Positions 25,573 to 51,857 of a DNA stretch of 53,834 nt are shown piece by piece. Position 1 is the stretch's first letter, and each line of letters begins with the position of its first letter. The translations under genes and the position numbers were made by a program. Origin of the DNA: Candidatus Falkowbacteria bacterium (GTDB taxonomy: Bacteria > Patescibacteriota > Patescibacteriia > UBA11705 > JABHMO01); contig JABHAL010000013.1 of NCBI GenBank assembly GCA_018674305.1, positions 74,553-128,386 on the forward strand, read 5' to 3'. Below the pieces are notes generated by a model, which saw only the letters and a program-made list of their open reading frames with translations, was not told where the DNA came from and ran no database searches.

Positions 25573-28500
25573 ATGGCATCAACAGCAGAGAGTTCAGCAC
25601 CAGCACCTGCTCCAAAGGAGAAAGACGTTACCAAGGAATTAGCAATTCAAGCTCGCAACTATTATAACCGAACACAAGTGCCGGATGGTGTTTCTGATGG
25701 CAAGCTTTATTATAGTCCAGCAAGAATTAGTGGTGTAAAAGAAGCACTTGAGAAATTAAATAAACTGGCCACTGAAAGTGAGGACATTAAAATCCTTGAT
25801 AGACACGGCGGTGAGATGATTTCTATTGATGAAGCTATTGTTAGCATTAAAGCTAATTTAAAATTATCCGAAGAGATTCATTTAGAAAAAGGTTATAAAG
25901 TCCCTGAAGCTTCTGAAGGCGCTGAGGCTGAAGAGTCAGTAGAAAGTGATGCAGAAAAGGTTGAAAAAAGAAAGGATGAGTTTGTTCAACAGGCCAAGGA
26001 AAAATTTGCAAAATTTGTTAAGCTAATGAATAAGTTGGAAAAATTGCCGGAATTTACTGAGGCTGAAGAGTTAAAAGAAAGAGCAAAAAAAGCAATAGAT
26101 ACTTTTGTGGAAAAATTGAACGCTATTTCATCTGGTGGGTCAGCTGAAGATCTTGGTAGCCCAGTAACGGAAATGCAAGCAATCGAACAAGAAGCAAAGA
26201 AATTGAACATTGATTTAGAAAAAGGGCAAGTGGTTAGTTGGACCAATGAAAAAGGAGAGAAATTAGCTGGCTTCGTGACTGGATTGGCGAAAAAAGGAAA
26301 GGGGATTATGATCCGAATAGGAGACAAAGATCATATTGTCAATCGTCAAGATGTGAAAATAGAATCCGGTAGTTCTGCTGAAATTAAAACTGAAGTTGTA
26401 AAAGCTACTAGCTTTGAATCTTTAAAAACCTTGTTACCAGATTATTTAACAGTAGGTAGCAAGATTTATGACAAAAAAGAATTACAAGACATGGTTGATC
26501 TTATTGTAAAAAGTAATCCTGCGATTGAAAGTCCATTGGTTCACGCGTTACCAAAAGAAGGTGGCTTTAGAAATAAAGTAATTGAATTGCTTCAACCGCA
26601 TCTATTGGAAGTTAAAAGAAATAATTATGCTGATAAGTATGCTAAAGTTTCTAAAAAATTTGGTGGAGTGGTTGGTTGGATTCGTCGAGCTACAAATTCA
26701 GGGGCATATTTGAAAGACATGGAAGGACTGCAGGAATCTAAGGATACTTATATGGAGGCTAGAGCGGAAACAGTAGCTGCCAAAATGGAAAAATGGACCA
26801 GTGAACAAATGGCTTTGTCTGATGCAAAGGCAGAAGCTTTTCAAAAAGAAAAAGGTTGGGGTAGCAAGGTCTATGATCTGTATCGCAATAATAAATATAT
26901 TAGAAAATTTAATAAAGGCCGACTTTACGTTGGTCTCGGCTTAATGGGTGCAAGTTTAGTAGCGGGAGCCCCAGTTTTAGCAACTGCTGGCGCATTCGGT
27001 GGAGCTTATTTTGCAGCTTCAAGAGCTTTTGGTTTTGTTGGTGGTTCAATGGGTTCATATGAATTGATGAATTGGGCAGACAAAAGAAAAGGTACAAAAA
27101 TCCCTTTATCTCCTGAAATAAAATCAAAACTAAAGGAATACAAAAAACAAATCAAGGGAGTTTTAGCCAACAAAGAAGCTGCTATACAAGAGCAAATGGA
27201 TGAATATGTTAGAAAAAATGGTTTATCTCGGAGTGAGAAGAGTGAAGATCCAGGATATTTAGCTTTAGCCAATCAATTAAAAGAACGTAAAAGATTAATC
27301 CAACAGAAAACAGTAGAGTTGCAAGCTGAACAAGCAATAGAGTTACCAGATGATCAGTTGGAAAAAGTATTGATATATTATCAAACAGTTGTTGTTAGAA
27401 ATGGAATAAAAATTTCTGAAGATCCAAAATATCAAATGTTACTTAAAGAAAAAGCTCGTCGAATGAAAGGTGTAATTGATGGATTAAAAGCGCAAGATGT
27501 GTCTTCAGAAAAAGCCAAGATTGGAGCAGAAGATAGAGAAAGATTGGAAAGGGCAGTTGAGGCTAGAGCGGAACATCTAAGAGAGTTAGCCATTCATCGA
27601 ACTGACGATTATATTCGAAATGTAATTTTAACTTTTGTCCGACAACAAGAATTAAACAAGGTAAAAGGAACTGCAGCACAAAGGAAAAAAAGTCCTGAGT
27701 ATAAACGTGCTCAAGCATGTCAAAATGTTTTGGATAAACGTTACAAAAATTTACCACCAGACATACAAGTTGTTTTAGATCAGCTTTCAGCAAAAGGAAC
27801 AAAGAATCCAGCTGAATATTATCAGCAAATATATACAACTGAGAGTGTTAAGAAGATTATGAAGGTAAGGAAACATGGGTTTGAAGAAGATATTAATCTT
27901 TTTTCCATTAACCTTGAGGCTTGGGAAATGAATGATGACTTTAAATCTCATCTTAATGAAGTTTTGTCCAATAATGAATTGATTAAAAAACAAGCGCAAG
28001 AAGATGTTCTGAATGATATGGAAACTTTTGTTACCGCTGTGGCAGAAAAAGAAAAAAGGGTTGAGGCAAAGGTCAACGCGTTAGAAGAAATATTGGCTAA
28101 AAAACTAAATGCAATTGATGAAAGAGCAGAGAGTGAAGCTTTGCAAAAACAGTGGAGTAATGAAACCCGTAGAACCGTACGAAAAGTTATCGCGGTTGAA
28201 ATTGGTGCGTTATTTGCTTCAGGTGTAGTTCAGCGTAAATTAATGGGAATGGCCTTTGGTAGTGGAGAAGCCGCTGCCGGCGAGGTCTCCGATACAAGAG
28301 CAAGTGGTGGGGGTGAAGTAGTTGAACCTACGCCAACCGTGGCAGAGGGTACACCTGGACCAGAGCGAGAGCTTGTCGCTGGAGTGGATTATCCGGGCGA
28401 AGCAGTTTTACCAGAAGATGATGCTGGAGTTACCGGCGCTGAAGTTGAAACAGCTGCGGTTAAAGCAGCTGAAGTCGAAACAGCTGTAGTAGAAGAACAC

Positions 28501-30306
28501 CCAGTTCCAGCAGTTGAAGCTGTATTAGACGCGACCTATCCAGAACAAACATTTGAATTTGGTGATGGTGATAGCGTTAGTCGTATTATGGACATAGAAA
28601 CAATGGATCATGGTCAGGAGATGTTTCCATCTCAGTGGGAAGAAGCTTTGGAAAGTGCGGGTGGCAATGAAACAGTAGCCAAAGAATCTTTTAATGAGTT
28701 TATTCATGACTGGAAAATGGGACAATTAAAAGGACTTGGTTACGATTGGGTGAAATTCGATGGTCAATATCATTATGGTTATCCATTTACACCACATGCT
28801 GGAGCAGAATTATCTTTTGTTCAGGATCCAGAAGCTATGGGTGGCTGGAAAATTGAAATGGCAGATCATCATTTAACTGAACATGACCAATTAAGATTTC
28901 GGGATTTGCCAGCTGAAGCTTGGCAAAATGGTTCAGTTAAAACCGTTTTAGGTGAAACCATTGAAGCACCAAAGGACTTAGAAGTGGCAGCAGTTGAAAA
29001 GTCAGTTGAGTTGCCAGTAGCCGAAGCTTCAGAACCAGTTTCTGAAGCCCCAATTGAAGAACCTATTGCTGATCCTGATCTTGAACCTGAAGAGGTTCTG
29101 GCAGAAGAGTCTATTGTTGAGCCTGAGGAGGTTCCAGCTGAAGAGCTAGCTACGGAAACAGAACAAGCGCCAGCTGAACCAAGGATGGACACAAGTAATC
29201 CCGGTGAAGTATATATGGAATCTGATAGCCGTGGATTGAATAGAGCGGAATTAGTTGATAATAATATTTTGCGTGATGATTGGGTTGATCATGCCAGGGG
29301 TGCAGGAAATAATCCAGCACTTGCTCAACAAGCTATTGAATCTAGAGCGAGTCGCGTTTTTAATCTTCAGCAAGCTATGGAAAGGGCAGCTGCAAGCGGA
29401 GATGCTGAAGCTGTCGCTAAGCTTGGTAGGAACATTGATTTAATTGTAAATCAAACAGAAAATAAGTATGGCCCTGTATTTGAAAGCGGAGTAGGTGAAG
29501 TACCGGAGGTTGAAGTTAATGCTGGTGAGGCTGGCGCCGAGTTGGAACAATCTGTTGTCGATGAACCGGCTGAGACTGGAGAACCAGCAGGATTTGAGGG
29601 CACTCCAACAGAGCGAGCAGCTGAATTTACAAAGCTTCACCGTAGTGATTATCCGGGCGTTGGAGAAATGCAAAATGAGGGGATCATTCGCAAAGGATAT
29701 TTGGCCGATTTAGAAGGTTTAGATGAAGATGGTGAAGTTAAGCAGAATCAAGTAGCTAATCATGCTCGAAGAATTGTTCGACTTGAGGATGCTTTAGCTG
29801 ATGCCAAAGAAGCTGGAGATAATGAAGCGGCCAAGATCTTAGAAGAAAAGATTGATAATAATTACAAAAGAATTCCCGTGAAATATCGAGAAGCATTTGT
29901 GCATTATAATAATGAACCAGTAGTTGAAGCACCTGAACCTGCGGTTGGGGATACGGAATTAGTAGGCACTCCATATGATAGAGCTAATGAATATATTAAT
30001 GATGCCATTCCTCCAACAAATGAAACGATTGCTAATGGTGACGGAGCAGTTTTACGTGACGACTGGATTCAAGAAGCAGTTAAAGTAGCTAAAGATCAGG
30101 GGATTACAGATGTTAAGTTAGCTGAAAAATTTGTATCAGATACTTATCGGCAAGCTACAGATATATACGAAATGCAAGGTGCTTTGCATGCTGCTGAGGC
30201 GGCAGGTGACACGTCAGCAGTTGAGGAGATTAAAGGTAGATTAGCTTCCAATTTGTCCGCAATGAATAATCAGCTCAGAGACGCAATTTATACTGTAAAA
30301 TATTAA
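25573..30306 (+). CDS. Giant 1577-aa hypothetical membrane protein with three C-terminal ~130-aa repeats
   Basis: Uninterrupted ORF. Gly/Ala-rich TM region is at about nt 26917-27064 and a second hydrophobic segment at about 28180-28235. Acidic Pro/Glu/Val linkers separate the parts. Repeat anchors are LRDDW at 29269, IRKGY at about 29682 and LRDDW at 30052. Confidence 0.85.
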   Translation: MASTAESSAPAPAPKEKDVTKELAIQARNYYNRTQVPDGVSDGKLYYSPARISGVKEALEKLNKLATESEDIKILDRHGGEMISIDEAIVSIKANLKLSEEIHLEKGYKVPEASEGAEAEESVESDAEKVEKRKDEFVQQAKEKFAKFVKLMNKLEKLPEFTEAEELKERAKKAIDTFVEKLNAISSGGSAEDLGSPVTEMQAIEQEAKKLNIDLEKGQVVSWTNEKGEKLAGFVTGLAKKGKGIMIRIGDKDHIVNRQDVKIESGSSAEIKTEVVKATSFESLKTLLPDYLTVGSKIYDKKELQDMVDLIVKSNPAIESPLVHALPKEGGFRNKVIELLQPHLLEVKRNNYADKYAKVSKKFGGVVGWIRRATNSGAYLKDMEGLQESKDTYMEARAETVAAKMEKWTSEQMALSDAKAEAFQKEKGWGSKVYDLYRNNKYIRKFNKGRLYVGLGLMGASLVAGAPVLATAGAFGGAYFAASRAFGFVGGSMGSYELMNWADKRKGTKIPLSPEIKSKLKEYKKQIKGVLANKEAAIQEQMDEYVRKNGLSRSEKSEDPGYLALANQLKERKRLIQQKTVELQAEQAIELPDDQLEKVLIYYQTVVVRNGIKISEDPKYQMLLKEKARRMKGVIDGLKAQDVSSEKAKIGAEDRERLERAVEARAEHLRELAIHRTDDYIRNVILTFVRQQELNKVKGTAAQRKKSPEYKRAQACQNVLDKRYKNLPPDIQVVLDQLSAKGTKNPAEYYQQIYTTESVKKIMKVRKHGFEEDINLFSINLEAWEMNDDFKSHLNEVLSNNELIKKQAQEDVLNDMETFVTAVAEKEKRVEAKVNALEEILAKKLNAIDERAESEALQKQWSNETRRTVRKVIAVEIGALFASGVVQRKLMGMAFGSGEAAAGEVSDTRASGGGEVVEPTPTVAEGTPGPERELVAGVDYPGEAVLPEDDAGVTGAEVETAAVKAAEVETAVVEEHPVPAVEAVLDATYPEQTFEFGDGDSVSRIMDIETMDHGQEMFPSQWEEALESAGGNETVAKESFNEFIHDWKMGQLKGLGYDWVKFDGQYHYGYPFTPHAGAELSFVQDPEAMGGWKIEMADHHLTEHDQLRFRDLPAEAWQNGSVKTVLGETIEAPKDLEVAAVEKSVELPVAEASEPVSEAPIEEPIADPDLEPEEVLAEESIVEPEEVPAEELATETEQAPAEPRMDTSNPGEVYMESDSRGLNRAELVDNNILRDDWVDHARGAGNNPALAQQAIESRASRVFNLQQAMERAAASGDAEAVAKLGRNIDLIVNQTENKYGPVFESGVGEVPEVEVNAGEAGAELEQSVVDEPAETGEPAGFEGTPTERAAEFTKLHRSDYPGVGEMQNEGIIRKGYLADLEGLDEDGEVKQNQVANHARRIVRLEDALADAKEAGDNEAAKILEEKIDNNYKRIPVKYREAFVHYNNEPVVEAPEPAVGDTELVGTPYDRANEYINDAIPPTNETIANGDGAVLRDDWIQEAVKVAKDQGITDVKLAEKFVSDTYRQATDIYEMQGALHAAEAAGDTSAVEEIKGRLASNLSAMNNQLRDAIYTVKY

Positions 30307-41806: not shown

Positions 41807-42832
41807 ATGGAAAAAACTACAAAAAATAAAAAGACTCTAACGGTTGGGGTTTCTATAATTCAGCCTTTAGTCATGGAAACAAAAGGCGGTAAGTTCAACG
41901 GTTTTGAAATTGAGTTATGGGAAAGAGTTGCCAAATATCTTGGTAGAAAATTCGAATATAAAAAATATAAGTTCAAAAATCTTTTAGATAAAGTTAAAGA
42001 AAAAAAAGTTGATTTGGCAATTGCCGGGATCACCCGGAATGAGGAGCGGGAAAAGGTGGTTGATTTTTCATACTACACTTTGGATACAGGTCTGGGCATT
42101 TTAGTTTCTGGAAGAGGAAAAGTTGGGTTGTTAGGTTTAATAAAATCTTTCTTTACAAGAGAAGTAAAACGACTGGTTTTTCTTGTTTTGGGTTTATTTA
42201 TTTTTGTGTTTGTTTTTAGCCACTTGCTTTGGTTTTTTGAACGTGGAATCGGTGCATTTGCCGCTGATTATGGCACGGGTATCTTTGAGTCGCTTTGGTG
42301 GGTGATTGTTACTGTCAGCACGGTTGGCTACGGTGATTATGTGCCGTTAACAGCCATGGGAAGAGCATTTGGAATAGTTGTAATTTTAAGCGGTTACATT
42401 CTTTATGTAATTATAATTGCAGAAATCAGTTCAATAATGACAATTAGAAGAATAAAATCTAATATTCAATCGACAAAAGATTTGCATGGGAAAAAAGTAG
42501 CCACATTGAAACATACAGTCAGCGTTGATGCTTTGGAAAAATTAAAAGCTAAAATTGTCTTGGTTGATAAAATTGAACAAGCATATAAAAAATTAGAATT
42601 TGGCAAAGTTGACGCAGTTGTTTTTGACGCGCCAACACTTCATTATTATGCAAATCACCAGGGGCTTGGCAAAGTTCTGGTTTTAGATAATATTTTTCAA
42701 ACTCAATCATACGGTATTGCTTTACCGGAAAACAGTGATTTAATAGAAAATATTAACAGAGGCTTACTCAACCTTCACGATACCGGAGAATATCAGGAAT
42801 TGCATAAAAAATGGTTTAGTGAAGAAGATTAA
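41807..42832 (+). CDS. Solute-binding-domain-gated K+ channel (GluR0-like)
   Basis: SBP family 3 lobe 1 (GFEIELWERVAKYLG, IAGITRNEEREKVVDFS) is followed by M1, the P-loop TVSTVGYGD, M2 and SBP lobe 2. Confidence 0.8.
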   Translation: MEKTTKNKKTLTVGVSIIQPLVMETKGGKFNGFEIELWERVAKYLGRKFEYKKYKFKNLLDKVKEKKVDLAIAGITRNEEREKVVDFSYYTLDTGLGILVSGRGKVGLLGLIKSFFTREVKRLVFLVLGLFIFVFVFSHLLWFFERGIGAFAADYGTGIFESLWWVIVTVSTVGYGDYVPLTAMGRAFGIVVILSGYILYVIIIAEISSIMTIRRIKSNIQSTKDLHGKKVATLKHTVSVDALEKLKAKIVLVDKIEQAYKKLEFGKVDAVVFDAPTLHYYANHQGLGKVLVLDNIFQTQSYGIALPENSDLIENINRGLLNLHDTGEYQELHKKWFSEED

Positions 42833-44213: not shown

Positions 44214-44228
44214 TTTGCCCATTTAGTC

Positions 44229-44281
44229 GCCTGGCCCTGAAACGGCCAGGCTAGTGTTAGTGAAGGCCCCTAAACGGGCCT
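44229..44281. repeat. REP-like arm (left)
   Basis: H1 is GCCTGGCC-CTGAAAC-GGCCAGGC (44229-44251). H2 is AGGCCC-CTAAAC-GGGCCT (44264-44281). Confidence 0.8.
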
Positions 44282-44298
44282 GTAGATAAGGTTAAAGA

Positions 44299-44715
44299 TT
44301 ATGTCAATCTGGGTATTTCTTCAAAAACACTGATCAAATCATTGTCTTTGTGTTTTTGTTTTTGGTTTTTGATATATTCAGCCACAAATGGTAACTGTTT
44401 CTCAGCCAAACTTAAAACGCCAAAACCTGTTTGCCAATAAAATATTTTTTCATCAAGAATAGCATTTATATAATGAGAGGAACTTCCCTTAATTGAGTTT
44501 ACAAAGGCTGAAACACTTATCTTTGGCGGAATTCTTGCTAATAAATGTAAATGATCTTCGACCATTTCAAGTTTTAATTGTTTGGCATTCAATTTCAGGG
44601 TTTTGTGGGGAATAAATTGTTTTAGCTGGTTTTCAATTTGTGTAGTAATAATTGGCGAGCGGTTTTTAGTGGCCCAAATAAAATGATAAAATAGTTTATA
44701 ATAGGATGTTGGCAT
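44299..44715 (-). CDS. REP-associated tyrosine transposase / IS200-family Y1 transposase
   Basis: 138 aa with YHFIWATKNR, the HUH motif DHLHLL, and a C-terminal catalytic-Tyr context EYIKNQ. Confidence 0.85.
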   Translation of the reverse strand: MPTSYYKLFYHFIWATKNRSPIITTQIENQLKQFIPHKTLKLNAKQLKLEMVEDHLHLLARIPPKISVSAFVNSIKGSSSHYINAILDEKIFYWQTGFGVLSLAEKQLPFVAEYIKNQKQKHKDNDLISVFEEIPRLT

Positions 44716-44745
44716 ATTTATGTTTTATGAATTAAATACAGGTTC

Positions 44746-44798
44746 AGCCCCGTTTACGGGGGTTTGTTGCTACTAGCCTGGCCGTTTCAGGGCCAGGC
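44746..44798. repeat. REP-like arm (right)
   Basis: GCCTGGCCGTTTCAGGGCCAGGC (44776-44798) is the exact reverse complement of 44229-44251. The CCCCG-TTTA-CGGGG hairpin lies at 44748-44761. Confidence 0.8.
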
Positions 44799-44912
44799 GG
44801 CTTAGTTGGTGGACTTATATTCATTGTGACAGTCGAATAATTAAATTCCTAACAAAATGTTATACACACTCGTCAAGATTTTTTAAATAATGATTTGTCC
44901 ATGGTGCAATAT

Positions 44913-46338: not shown

Positions 46339-46390
46339 GGAATAAAAAAACGACGAACACAAGTTCATCGTTTTTTTATGGCTCGGGGAC
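46339..46390. repeat. Direct repeat copy 1 (terminator plus the last 12 nt of tRNA-Gln)
   Basis: 52 nt, identical to 46524-46574 except for one extra A in the A-run. Confidence 0.9.
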
Positions 46391-46523
46391 CTGCCTGCCG
46401 GTAGGCAGACTAGGAATCTCACGCGTCACTCCGTGTACTCGTGGAAGGGCTTCCGCCCCTCCAGCTCCCCCAGAAAGTAAGGGAATTCTTCCCTTACCAT
46501 CCCTGGTTCGATTCATTGCTTTT
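46379..46523 (-). ncRNA. Candidate structured RNA or att-site remnant ending in a tRNA-like 3' end
   Basis: On the minus strand it holds a GNRA hairpin GGAGGGGC-GGAA-GCCCTTCC (46443-46462, G.U only on this strand). It also holds a 9-bp hairpin at 46477-46497 and a 20-nt palindrome at 46391-46410. It ends ...GATTCCTAG[insert]TCCCCGAGCCA followed by its own copy of the terminator. Confidence 0.35.
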
Positions 46524-46574
46524 GGAATAAAAAACGACGAACACAAGTTCATCGTTTTTTTATGGCTCGGGGAC
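46524..46574. repeat. Direct repeat copy 2 (terminator plus tRNA-Gln 3' end)
   Basis: See copy 1. Confidence 0.9.
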
Positions 46575-46636
46575 TAGGAATCGAACCTAGATTGCCTGGA
46601 CCAAAACCAGGTGTCCTACCATTAGACGATCCCCGA
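46563..46636 (-). tRNA. tRNA-Gln (anticodon UUG), CCA encoded
   Basis: Hand-folded cloverleaf: acceptor TCGGGGA/TCCCCGA, D arm GTCT-AATGGTA-GGAC, anticodon arm CCTGG-TTTTGGT-CCAGG, T arm CTAGG-TTCGATT-CCTAG, discriminator G, then CCA. Total 74 nt. Confidence 0.85.
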
Positions 46637-46774
46637 ACGGATTAAAGTTCAAAGTAGGAAATTCAATTTAACTAATAATATACTAGCTTAATTTTTTATG
46701 AAAGTCAAGGTTGAAAAAGAGGAAGTAGGTTTATTGATTGAAAAATGTTGTTATTCTTGTTATATTCTAGTTAT

Positions 46775-51088: not shown

Positions 51089-51117
51089 TTGACAAATTAT
51101 AAAATTTGTGCTATAAT
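51089..51117 (+). promoter_or_regulatory. Consensus sigma70 promoter (TTGACA-17-TGcTATAAT)
   Basis: -35 at 51089-51094 and -10 at 51112-51117. The palindrome ACAAATT-ATAA-AATTTGT lies at 51092-51109. Confidence 0.7.
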
Positions 51118-51158
51118 ACAACTTCAATAACTGTTCATTTAACTTACAGGAGGTCAGC

Positions 51159-51437
51159 ATGACCAGAGAGCAAGTTGCATCTTTGATCCGCTGGCCCATG
51201 ATTATTTGGGCCTTTGGAATCATTAACGTTACGGCTATGTTGCCACAGTTGTGGCAGTTGATTCAGACGCAGGAAACCAAGGGGCTTTCTGTGGGGATGT
51301 TCTTCATTTATGGATTCATCCAGATCGCATTTGCGTTGGAAGGCTACTTCAAGCGCAACACTGTGCTCTCGGTTTGTATGACCTTGAGTGCAATGGTCAC
51401 GGCTGTAACTATTACTTTGTTTTATTACTTTCAATAG
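51159..51437 (+). CDS. SemiSWEET / PQ-loop three-TM transporter
   Basis: 92 aa with three hydrophobic helices and LPQLWQLIQTQETKGLS. AGGAGG lies 6 nt upstream. Confidence 0.6.
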   Translation: MTREQVASLIRWPMIIWAFGIINVTAMLPQLWQLIQTQETKGLSVGMFFIYGFIQIAFALEGYFKRNTVLSVCMTLSAMVTAVTITLFYYFQ

Positions 51438-51448
51438 AGAGGGATAAC

Positions 51449-51808
51449 ATGATTGGACTTTCTGTTTCATTCTGTGTTCGGGACATTGCCAAGGGCGAGG
51501 TTGCCTTGGCTGACGTAGACAAGATCATCGGCAGCACTCGTGCGGTAACTCCTGAGAATTGGGAGCAGGTGATCGCCCATTACAAGGAGACCTACTGGAG
51601 CTGGGATGATTGCACTCCAGAAAAGGGAGAGGCGGTCTTGCGTCAGTTGTTGGCCGAGGGCAAGATCGAACAGCCTCGTCTCCTGGACGATCGGAATTAC
51701 CCTTGGCTTGGGAATCGCAAGCACTGGGTGGACTCGGAGGACGAAATTCTCTGGGGGGAGATGAGCTCCGAGCGCTACGATCGATTGAAGGCTGAGGGAC
51801 GACTGTAG
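51449..51808 (+). CDS. Hypothetical protein (G+C-rich)
   Basis: Start set at ATG 51449 with GAGAGGG upstream. The track's 51251 start overlaps the SemiSWEET gene in another frame. No family recognised. Confidence 0.6.
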   Translation: MIGLSVSFCVRDIAKGEVALADVDKIIGSTRAVTPENWEQVIAHYKETYWSWDDCTPEKGEAVLRQLLAEGKIEQPRLLDDRNYPWLGNRKHWVDSEDEILWGEMSSERYDRLKAEGRL

Positions 51809-51820
51809 TTCAACTTTTGC

Positions 51821-51857
51821 CCGGCTGTACGCAATGCGTACAGCCGGTTTCTTTTTT
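51821..51857 (+). terminator. Intrinsic terminator
   Basis: A 12-bp perfect stem CCGGCTGTACGC-AAT-GCGTACAGCCGG followed by TTTCTTTTTT. Confidence 0.9.

Follow-up and report, generated by a model that had tools for sequence, protein, structure and literature searches.

In a 53,834-nucleotide stretch of a contig from an uncultivated marine Candidatus Falkowbacteria bacterium (JABHAL010000013.1; hereafter the window), we observed a compact insert directly downstream of the tRNA-Gln gene in which a GC-rich core of 100 nt is bordered by copies of the neighboring tRNA sequence. The same core recurs behind two tRNA-Glu genes on related contigs, at each of the three loci both of its ends match the local tRNA, and populations carry zero, one or two units of the insert. 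We tentatively interpret it as a lineage-specific, structured RNA element that is linked to glutamine and glutamate (Glx) tRNA genes and carries a mimic of the tRNA 3′ end, a reading that we favor at slightly less than even confidence. Under this interpretation, the element would be transcribed, its RNA would fold into a structure closed by a helix that we designate P0 and would function as a mimic, and its core would have moved between loci.

All coordinates below are positions in the window, and the minus strand is the strand of the tRNA. The sole tRNA gene in the window, that of tRNA-Gln(UUG), lies at 46563–46636 (−) with its CCA encoded (ARAGORN; Rfam RF00005, 62.1 bits). It is preceded by a sigma-70-like promoter (TTGACT-17-TAGTAT) at 46680–46708 (−), which is the only promoter-like site that a promoter scan of the same strand returned upstream of the locus; the scan found none between the tRNA terminator and the core. 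A repeat search revealed a direct repeat of 46 nt with 100% identity (46345–46390 and 46529–46574, at a spacing of 184) that, with one indel in an A/T run, extends to 46339–46390 and 46524–46574 (51/52 nt matching). Read on the tRNA strand, the repeat comprises the last 12 nt of tRNA-Gln (GTCCCCGAGCCA), a terminator hairpin with A- and U-tracts, and ATTCC. Beyond a 20-nt palindromic insert, the distal copy regains identity to the tRNA, with GACTAGGAATC at 46408–46418 equal to 46572–46582 and GATTCCTAG at 46410–46418. The GC content reaches 55–57% over 46350–46500 compared with ~30–35% in the surroundings. The duplicated tRNA 3′ end and terminator, the resumption of tRNA identity, the GC-rich intervening stretch and two hairpins between the copies had all been called in the original prediction and are borne out here.

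Following the tRNA strand, the proximal repeat R1 (46524–46582, −) runs from the T loop of the tRNA (GATTCCTAG TCCCCGAG CCA) through the terminator hairpin, predicted by RNAfold and ending in U6, to ATTCC. By sequence comparison, a spacer, AAAAGCAAT (46515–46523, −), separates it from the conserved 100-nt core at 46415–46514 (−), which starts with GAATCGAACC and ends with GTGAGATT; the core was delimited by alignments and matched by covariance model R1 with 128.7 bits at 46410–46517. An inverted-repeat search identified GAATCGAACC as the antisense of the tRNA-Gln T loop and stem at 46578–46587. Within the core lie the hairpins P1, GGUAAGGGAA-GAA-UUCCCUUACU (GGTAAGGGAA-GAA-TTCCCTTACT; 46476–46498, −), and P2, UGGAGGGGC-GGAA-GCCCUUCCA (46442–46463, −; GGAGGGGC-GGAA-GCCCTTCC at 46443–46462), each unique in the window, as well as a small bulged hairpin, P3 (GUACAC-GGA-GUGAC; 46425–46438, −), recognized from the alignment of copies. 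A copy of the T-stem 3′ strand, CCUAG (46410–46414, −), continues the GAUU with which the core ends. Together these form GAUUCCUAG, which equals tRNA positions 57–65 and gives helix P0 with the 5′ GAAUC. The palindromic hairpin insert of 20 nt, P5 (46390–46409, −), then sits where T stem and acceptor meet in the tRNA-derived 3′ segment. The distal repeat R2 (46339–46389, −) supplies the 3′ strand of the acceptor, including G73 and CCA (UCCCCGAGCCA), followed by a second copy of the terminator that has U7 and by ATTCC. Comparison of assemblies delimits a 184-nt unit of variable copy number at 46345–46528, its register being arbitrary within the repeat. The only open reading frame (ORF) in the 184-nt insert is 46 aa long and not conserved.

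We found related contigs by looking up the two flanking proteins in public assemblies; the Glu(CUC) locus was reached through a 78-aa gene on contigs L004/L007, and further copies by using the 46-aa pseudo-protein as a query handle in protein catalogs. Core copies are present at three loci, tRNA-Gln(UUG), tRNA-Glu(CUC) and tRNA-Glu(UUC), those at the Glu genes being 80–92% identical to the window core. Every copy is oriented as its tRNA, a terminator stands after every unit, and covariance model R1 scores the copies at 120–129 bits. At the Glu(CUC) site (L005, L012 and L013), a core of 99 nt with 92% identity to the window core comes after the tRNA and its terminator, and behind this core the tRNA-Glu 3′ end (TCTCCTTGGGGGTACCA) and the terminator are repeated exactly. 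At the Glu(UUC) site (L025–L030 and L032), the tRNA, its terminator and a 21-nt spacer lead to a core of ~80% identity, after which come GATT-CCCCG, a 36-nt hairpin, TGGGGTCACCA and a different terminator. The tRNA-derived nucleotides at this last site, which looks the oldest of the three, reproduce the tRNA's own 3′ 20 nt in 20 of 20 positions, although the second terminator differs from the first, and this exact match beside a changed terminator suggests constraint on the mimic. In a related species (species B; L017), the tRNA-Gln is identical, the core is ~90% identical and the hairpin insert is the same save for two transitions, with unrelated sequence and a different terminator following GCCCCGAGC. 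The spacer between R1 and the core varies, being AAAGGTAAT in species B and a single nucleotide at Glu(CUC). The tetranucleotide correlation with the window is 0.99 for the Glu(UUC) contig L032 and 0.96 for the Glu(CUC) contig L005, and the contigs share samples; this agreement in composition and samples suggests that the three loci derive from one genome or lineage, which we judged to be Patescibacteria from the names of homologs of a neighboring protein with a Gmad2 domain. Searching related genomes for the core and for empty sites, as had been proposed with the original prediction, was productive in that it yielded the core at the two tRNA-Glu genes and alleles with no unit, and returned nothing beyond the lineage.

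Both ends of the element match the local tRNA. The 5′ end is the antisense of the cognate T arm, namely GAATCGAACC at Gln (10 nt), GGAGAATCGAACT at Glu(CUC) (13 nt) and GGGGAATCGAAC at Glu(UUC) (12 nt). The core of 100 nt combines near-invariant junction sequences, GGGAUGG, UGGGGGAG and GUGAGAUU, with the three hairpins. At the 3′ end, the core-terminal GAUU passes directly into the cognate T-stem 3′ strand, acceptor 3′ strand, discriminator and CCA. A P5 hairpin stands exactly between the T-stem and acceptor strands at two of the three sites (20 nt at Gln, with an equivalent in species B, and 36 nt at Glu(UUC)) and is absent at Glu(CUC); the outer bases (C-GCCTGC ... G-CAGG) are common to the two P5 hairpins, which may be homologs. 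The duplication extends over 51–59 nt at two sites and is confined at two others to the 20 tRNA-derived nucleotides. On the tRNA strand, a unit reads, in order, 10–13 nt of antisense T arm, the 100-nt core with P1–P3, the sense tRNA from the T loop to CCA with or without P5, and an intrinsic terminator.

On L004 (700–810) and L007 (9775–9890), the tRNA-Gln and tRNA-Glu(CUC) loci are joined via a hybrid core that is Gln-type at its 5′ end and Glu-type at its 3′ end. The join reflects either a chromosomal rearrangement by recombination of dispersed cores or an assembler chimera over a 43-nt identical segment; the idea that the divergent continuation of L004 marks the edge of a larger island is ruled out, since it is this recombinant or chimeric join between the Gln and Glu(CUC) cores. 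In species C, another related species (L024, 225–250), the tRNA-Glu(CUC) terminator is followed by AGAATCGAACT, an 11-nt antisense T-loop start with no core behind it, possibly a deletion footprint.

The unit is polymorphic in copy number, as seen in assemblies made with SPAdes, with MEGAHIT (k=141) and by the Joint Genome Institute (JGI). Over 13 kb, L001/L003 are ~100% identical to the window, with exactly the 184-nt unit missing, and the intergenic distance is 323 nt in L001 as opposed to 507 nt in the window. A single unit is carried by L018/L031, L019 and L020, and two units by L023 and JGI 3300072015 (691 nt); L002, L021 and L022 contain at least one unit and break off inside a second. 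In the two-unit allele of L023, three single-nucleotide polymorphisms (SNPs) distinguish the units. Populations thus carry 0, 1 and 2 units, and the 1-unit and 2-unit alleles recur over assemblers and samples. Direct repeats of such length are expected to yield gain and loss of units through unequal homologous recombination, which would explain the allele series.

The folding of the unit was compared between strands and among copies. The minus strand folds better than its shuffles (z = −6.5 for 201 nt and −4.2 without the terminators), and the plus strand gives z = −4.7. P0 can form from GGGGAAUC/GAUUCCCC at Glu(UUC) and GGAGAAUC/GAUUuCUCC at Glu(CUC), and from no more than GAAUC/GAUUC at Gln. 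For both Glu units, RNAfold closes the RNA with P0 into a junction of P0, P1, P2 and P3. For the Gln unit it prefers a cloverleaf-like shape with a GGGGA/UCCCC helix; this closing helix, which the original prediction had put forward, is thus predicted for the Gln copy but has no counterpart in the Glu units and is not conserved in the family. The P1 stem is kept in all copies with a variable loop and includes one compensatory change from A-U to G-C in the Glu(CUC) copy. P2 combines an RGAA loop with an invariant G·U pair, a feature that P1 also carries, and shows one change from G-C to G·U in the Glu(UUC) copy. In P3, the Glu(UUC) copy contains one compensatory change from U-A to C-G and one mismatch. 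In the five sequences compared, double compensatory changes affect three pairs, one each in P0, P1 and P3, and standard pairs occupy 94% of pair cells compared with 43–56% when the partners are slid. These pairings, with their limited covariation, may reflect a structure read on the tRNA strand.

Searches of databases, genomes and the literature returned no known counterpart. The three copies matched no Rfam family at the gathering and E-value thresholds. Below threshold, all three drew a match to Clostridiales-2 (RF02937) at 16.7–19.3 bits, far from the gathering score of 58.6, in which only P1 aligns and 29 model positions are skipped. A check of the locus for known RNAs, likewise raised in the original prediction, came back with only tRNA-Gln above threshold. 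An identity as tRNA or tmRNA (transfer-messenger RNA) was rejected, ARAGORN and RF00005 detecting only the genuine tRNA-Gln and the cloverleaf-like Gln fold not being shared by the Glu units. Exact and degenerate core patterns gave no matches in genome contigs or viral contigs, and among metagenome contigs the only match was one already known. Eight viral matches to a 16-base pattern were rejected by the covariance model as chance, and the model found no extra copies over ~200 kb. A reading of the copies as template and variable repeats of a diversity-generating retroelement was discarded, because in the alignment the differences between copies have no adenine-specific pattern. Literature searches found no described equivalent.

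On the reading that we favor, of a Glx-tRNA-linked RNA, the unit would have no promoter of its own and would be transcribed from the tRNA promoter by read-through of the tRNA terminator. In the folded RNA, helix P0 would close a junction, mimicking and extending the T stem and leaving the cognate acceptor 3′ strand and NCCA as a 3′ tail. By imitating the 3′ ends of Glx tRNAs, the RNA would be the decoy or the substrate of some factor whose targets are such ends. At its own 3′ end, the unit repeats the 3′ end of the tRNA gene and its terminator exactly, which creates the 51-nt direct repeat; unequal homologous recombination between the copies of this repeat would generate the 0-, 1- and 2-unit alleles. 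Candidate routes for the spread of the core are recombination at shared T-loop sequence and a transposition-like process.

Several observations weigh against this reading. The covariation comes from only five sequences that are 77–93% identical, and its score is matched in 13 of 500 shuffles. The GNRA cap proposed in the original prediction is present here as GGAA, which occurs in three variants, but two variants have AGAA, so that no GNRA loop is conserved. We found no consistent pairing partner within the unit for the acceptor 3′ strand. Promoter scans returned no promoter-like site before any core, and strong terminators precede it. One of the SNPs in the second tandem unit disrupts a base pair of P2. 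The element is also dispensable, as seen from the allele with no unit, from L009, whose Glu(CUC) site is apparently empty, and from species C (L024), where only 11 nt remain. Scans of the genome, metagenome and viral collections turned up the family in this lineage alone. Finally, the Glx specificity is drawn from three sites out of three, and the ~90 kb of lineage sequence scanned contains no non-Glx tRNA gene to serve as a control.

The insert could also be a non-autonomous mobile DNA or retro-element that targets the T loop of Glx tRNAs with an enzyme supplied in trans, the main alternative, which we hold to be less likely than not but still substantially probable. The core would then be the element itself, and the T-arm segments and the duplication of 51–59 nt would be by-products of insertion, arising possibly from widely staggered nicks or from copying of a pre-tRNA 3′ fragment to the transcript end; the duplication would keep an essential tRNA intact. 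The identical core boundaries at three loci, the presence/absence polymorphism among otherwise identical genomes and the exact duplications, terminator included, at the Gln and Glu(CUC) sites of species A all fit such an element. So do the termini, GAATC...GATTC, which resemble short inverted repeats, the left-end remnant in L024 and the contig with a recombinant Gln/Glu(CUC) core, on which the copies behave as dispersed repeats. However, no transposase, integrase or reverse transcriptase gene adjoins any copy or is found among the 20 window proteins scanned, apart from an IS200-like Y1 gene that is unrelated and lies 1.7 kb away from the Gln site, and searching the viral, genome and metagenome collections by pattern yielded no longer relative. 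Only three copies are known, and these are 8–20% diverged, which argues against a recent burst. In addition, the exact 20 tRNA-derived nucleotides beside a diverged terminator and the hairpin at the same junction of two sites resemble selection on an RNA, and we know of no transposition chemistry that yields target duplications of 51–59 nt plus an inverted target copy. The original prediction had offered a miniature tRNA-targeting element and an expressed tRNA-like noncoding RNA (ncRNA) as possibilities; both survive and are not mutually exclusive, but "tRNA-like" applies only to the 3′ end.

Integration by an integrase classically leaves direct repeats of a tRNA 3′ end beginning in the T loop, and such a repeat is present here (46 nt exact, 51/52 nt). 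The original prediction accordingly listed a decayed att scar. We take this to mean the attL/attR remains of a tyrosine-integrase prophage or island at the tRNA 3′ end with its interior nearly all lost, and we regard it as improbable because the core is constant at three tRNAs and the repeat is local, not element-borne. Three tRNA loci decaying independently would not retain the same core of 100 nt with the same ends, and repeats specific to their sites (Gln, Glu(CUC) and Glu(UUC)) around a constant core are the opposite of a repeat carried by attP. The hairpin insert within the distal copy, moreover, recurs at two sites. No integrase remnant was found in the insert, none was detected by Pfam among the 20 window proteins scanned, and the recorded Pfam annotations of genes around the other copies include none.

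Least plausible of all is that the duplication is an assembly artifact, a mis-expanded or collapsed repeat, or that the GC-rich stretch encodes a 46-aa protein: contigs L002, L021 and L022 do end within the unit, where assemblers evidently struggle, and gene callers do predict the ORF, but the 0-, 1- and 2-unit alleles come from independent assemblies, SNPs separate the tandem units, the 0-unit haplotype would not be a product of collapse from a filled genome because the shared repeat is only 51 nt and the assembly k=141, and the ORF keeps neither its start nor its frame in the Glu(CUC) copy, which has a 1-nt indel and no start codon, and ends differently in L017 and L025. The refutation by artifact that the original prediction allowed for accordingly fails. 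The core is nonetheless annotated as hypothetical proteins of 46–72 aa in metagenome gene catalogs (P0004, P0005 and P0126), and these entries were the only effective handle for finding more copies.

Among known systems, the insert resembles tRNA att sites and derivatives such as cis-mobilizable elements (CIMEs), which retain attL/attR only, in that tRNA 3′ repeats starting in the T loop flank an insert and mediate its loss and tandem amplification. It differs in the constant 100-nt core at three tRNAs, the target-specific repeat, the antisense T-arm copy at the other end and the lack of an integrase. With miniature transposable elements that have inverted repeats (MITEs) it shares small size, discrete boundaries, insertion polymorphism and strong secondary structure. 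Its termini, GAATC...GATTC, look like short inverted repeats of 5 bp, or 8 bp at the Glu sites, and the right arm is also target tRNA sequence. Unlike MITEs, whose duplications measure 2–10 bp, the insert has a duplication of 51–59 nt, its three known copies all stand behind Glx tRNAs in one orientation, and no autonomous partner was found in the collections scanned; we rejected a standard MITE on the long duplication, the few copies and the confinement to tRNAs. Repetitive extragenic palindromes (REPs) and bacterial interspersed mosaic elements (BIMEs) with their REP-associated tyrosine transposases (RAYTs, which are IS200-like Y1 transposases) are similar in their GC-rich extragenic hairpins, and the Y1 gene lies close by. 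The chemistry of IS200/IS605 elements gives no target duplication. A REP or palindrome-associated transposable element (PATE) mobilized by the Y1 enzyme (IS200/RAYT) was rejected, as the hairpins at 44225–44255 and 44772–44799 differ from P1, P2 and P5, a long duplication is present and no Y1 gene is near the other copies.

The 3′ external transcribed spacers of tRNAs and small RNAs co-transcribed with them (3′ETS-type RNAs) are known, and the element is like them in lying directly downstream of a tRNA on the same strand with no promoter of its own. It departs from them in the full terminator that intervenes, the tRNA-derived ends and the recurrence at several tRNAs. Like bacterial ncRNAs that mimic tRNA, such as the YrlA Y RNAs (PMC4201824), and like the tRNA-like domain of tmRNA, the putative RNA would be a structured ncRNA presenting a portion of a tRNA, in this case the T-stem mimic plus the NCCA-bearing acceptor 3′ strand. 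In contrast to these, it has no full acceptor/T minihelix, no Rfam or ARAGORN match and no Rsr/Ro gene context, and its mimic is a copy of sequence from the cognate tRNA gene and is physically joined to that gene.

A few other features of the window are worth recording. The IS200-like Y1 transposase gene (44299–44715, −; PF01797, 138 aa) is present in all alleles and is bracketed by inverted pairs of GC-rich hairpins (44225–44255 with 44772–44799, plus inner hairpins, within a span of 44225–44799). Its sequence is unrelated to the core, and gene and hairpins together look like a RAYT/REP-type or minimal IS200 unit. At 41807–42832, a protein of 341 aa combines SBP_bac_3, Lig_chan and Ion_trans_2 domains (solute binding, ligand-gated channel and K+-channel pore), by which we classify it as a GluR0-like prokaryotic glutamate-receptor channel in a Patescibacterium. 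The interval 51100–51850 forms a GC-rich island (43–57% compared with ~30% on either side) with overlapping ORFs in several frames, among them one for a membrane-protein-like product of 92 aa (51159–51437) and others of 119–185 aa (to 51808); it may have been acquired horizontally. An ORF of 1577 aa at 25573–30306 had no Pfam match at E≤0.001.

The feature at the tRNA-Gln locus is genuine, recurs at other tRNA genes and falls into no described class; at the least, it adds a variant not seen before to the small elements or ncRNAs associated with tRNAs. More doubtfully, it could represent an undescribed class of tRNA-templated element in bacteria of the candidate phyla radiation, a 100-nt RNA with antisense and sense copies of the Glx tRNA T arm and 3′ end. 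Such an RNA might be a programmable mimic or partner of tRNA-Glu/Gln (for example, toward glutamyl-tRNA synthetase and GatCAB, or a nuclease acting on 3′ ends), or else the product might be an insertion that is guided by RNA, propagates itself and spares the tRNA by duplicating the target. On a practical level, the element breaks contigs in metagenome assemblies and yields spurious "proteins" in public catalogs. If it proves to be mobile, no chemistry known for transposition or integration would fit its anatomy, with inverted and direct T-arm copies and a tRNA-sparing duplication of 50–60 nt. If an RNA is produced, it would amount to a mimic of the tRNA 3′ end whose sequence is physically copied from the neighboring tRNA gene and stays matched to it. 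Such a mimic would be confined to the Glu and Gln tRNAs, which in many bacteria share one aminoacylation pathway, and would point to unexplored regulation or defense around Glx-tRNAs in the reduced genomes of Patescibacteria.

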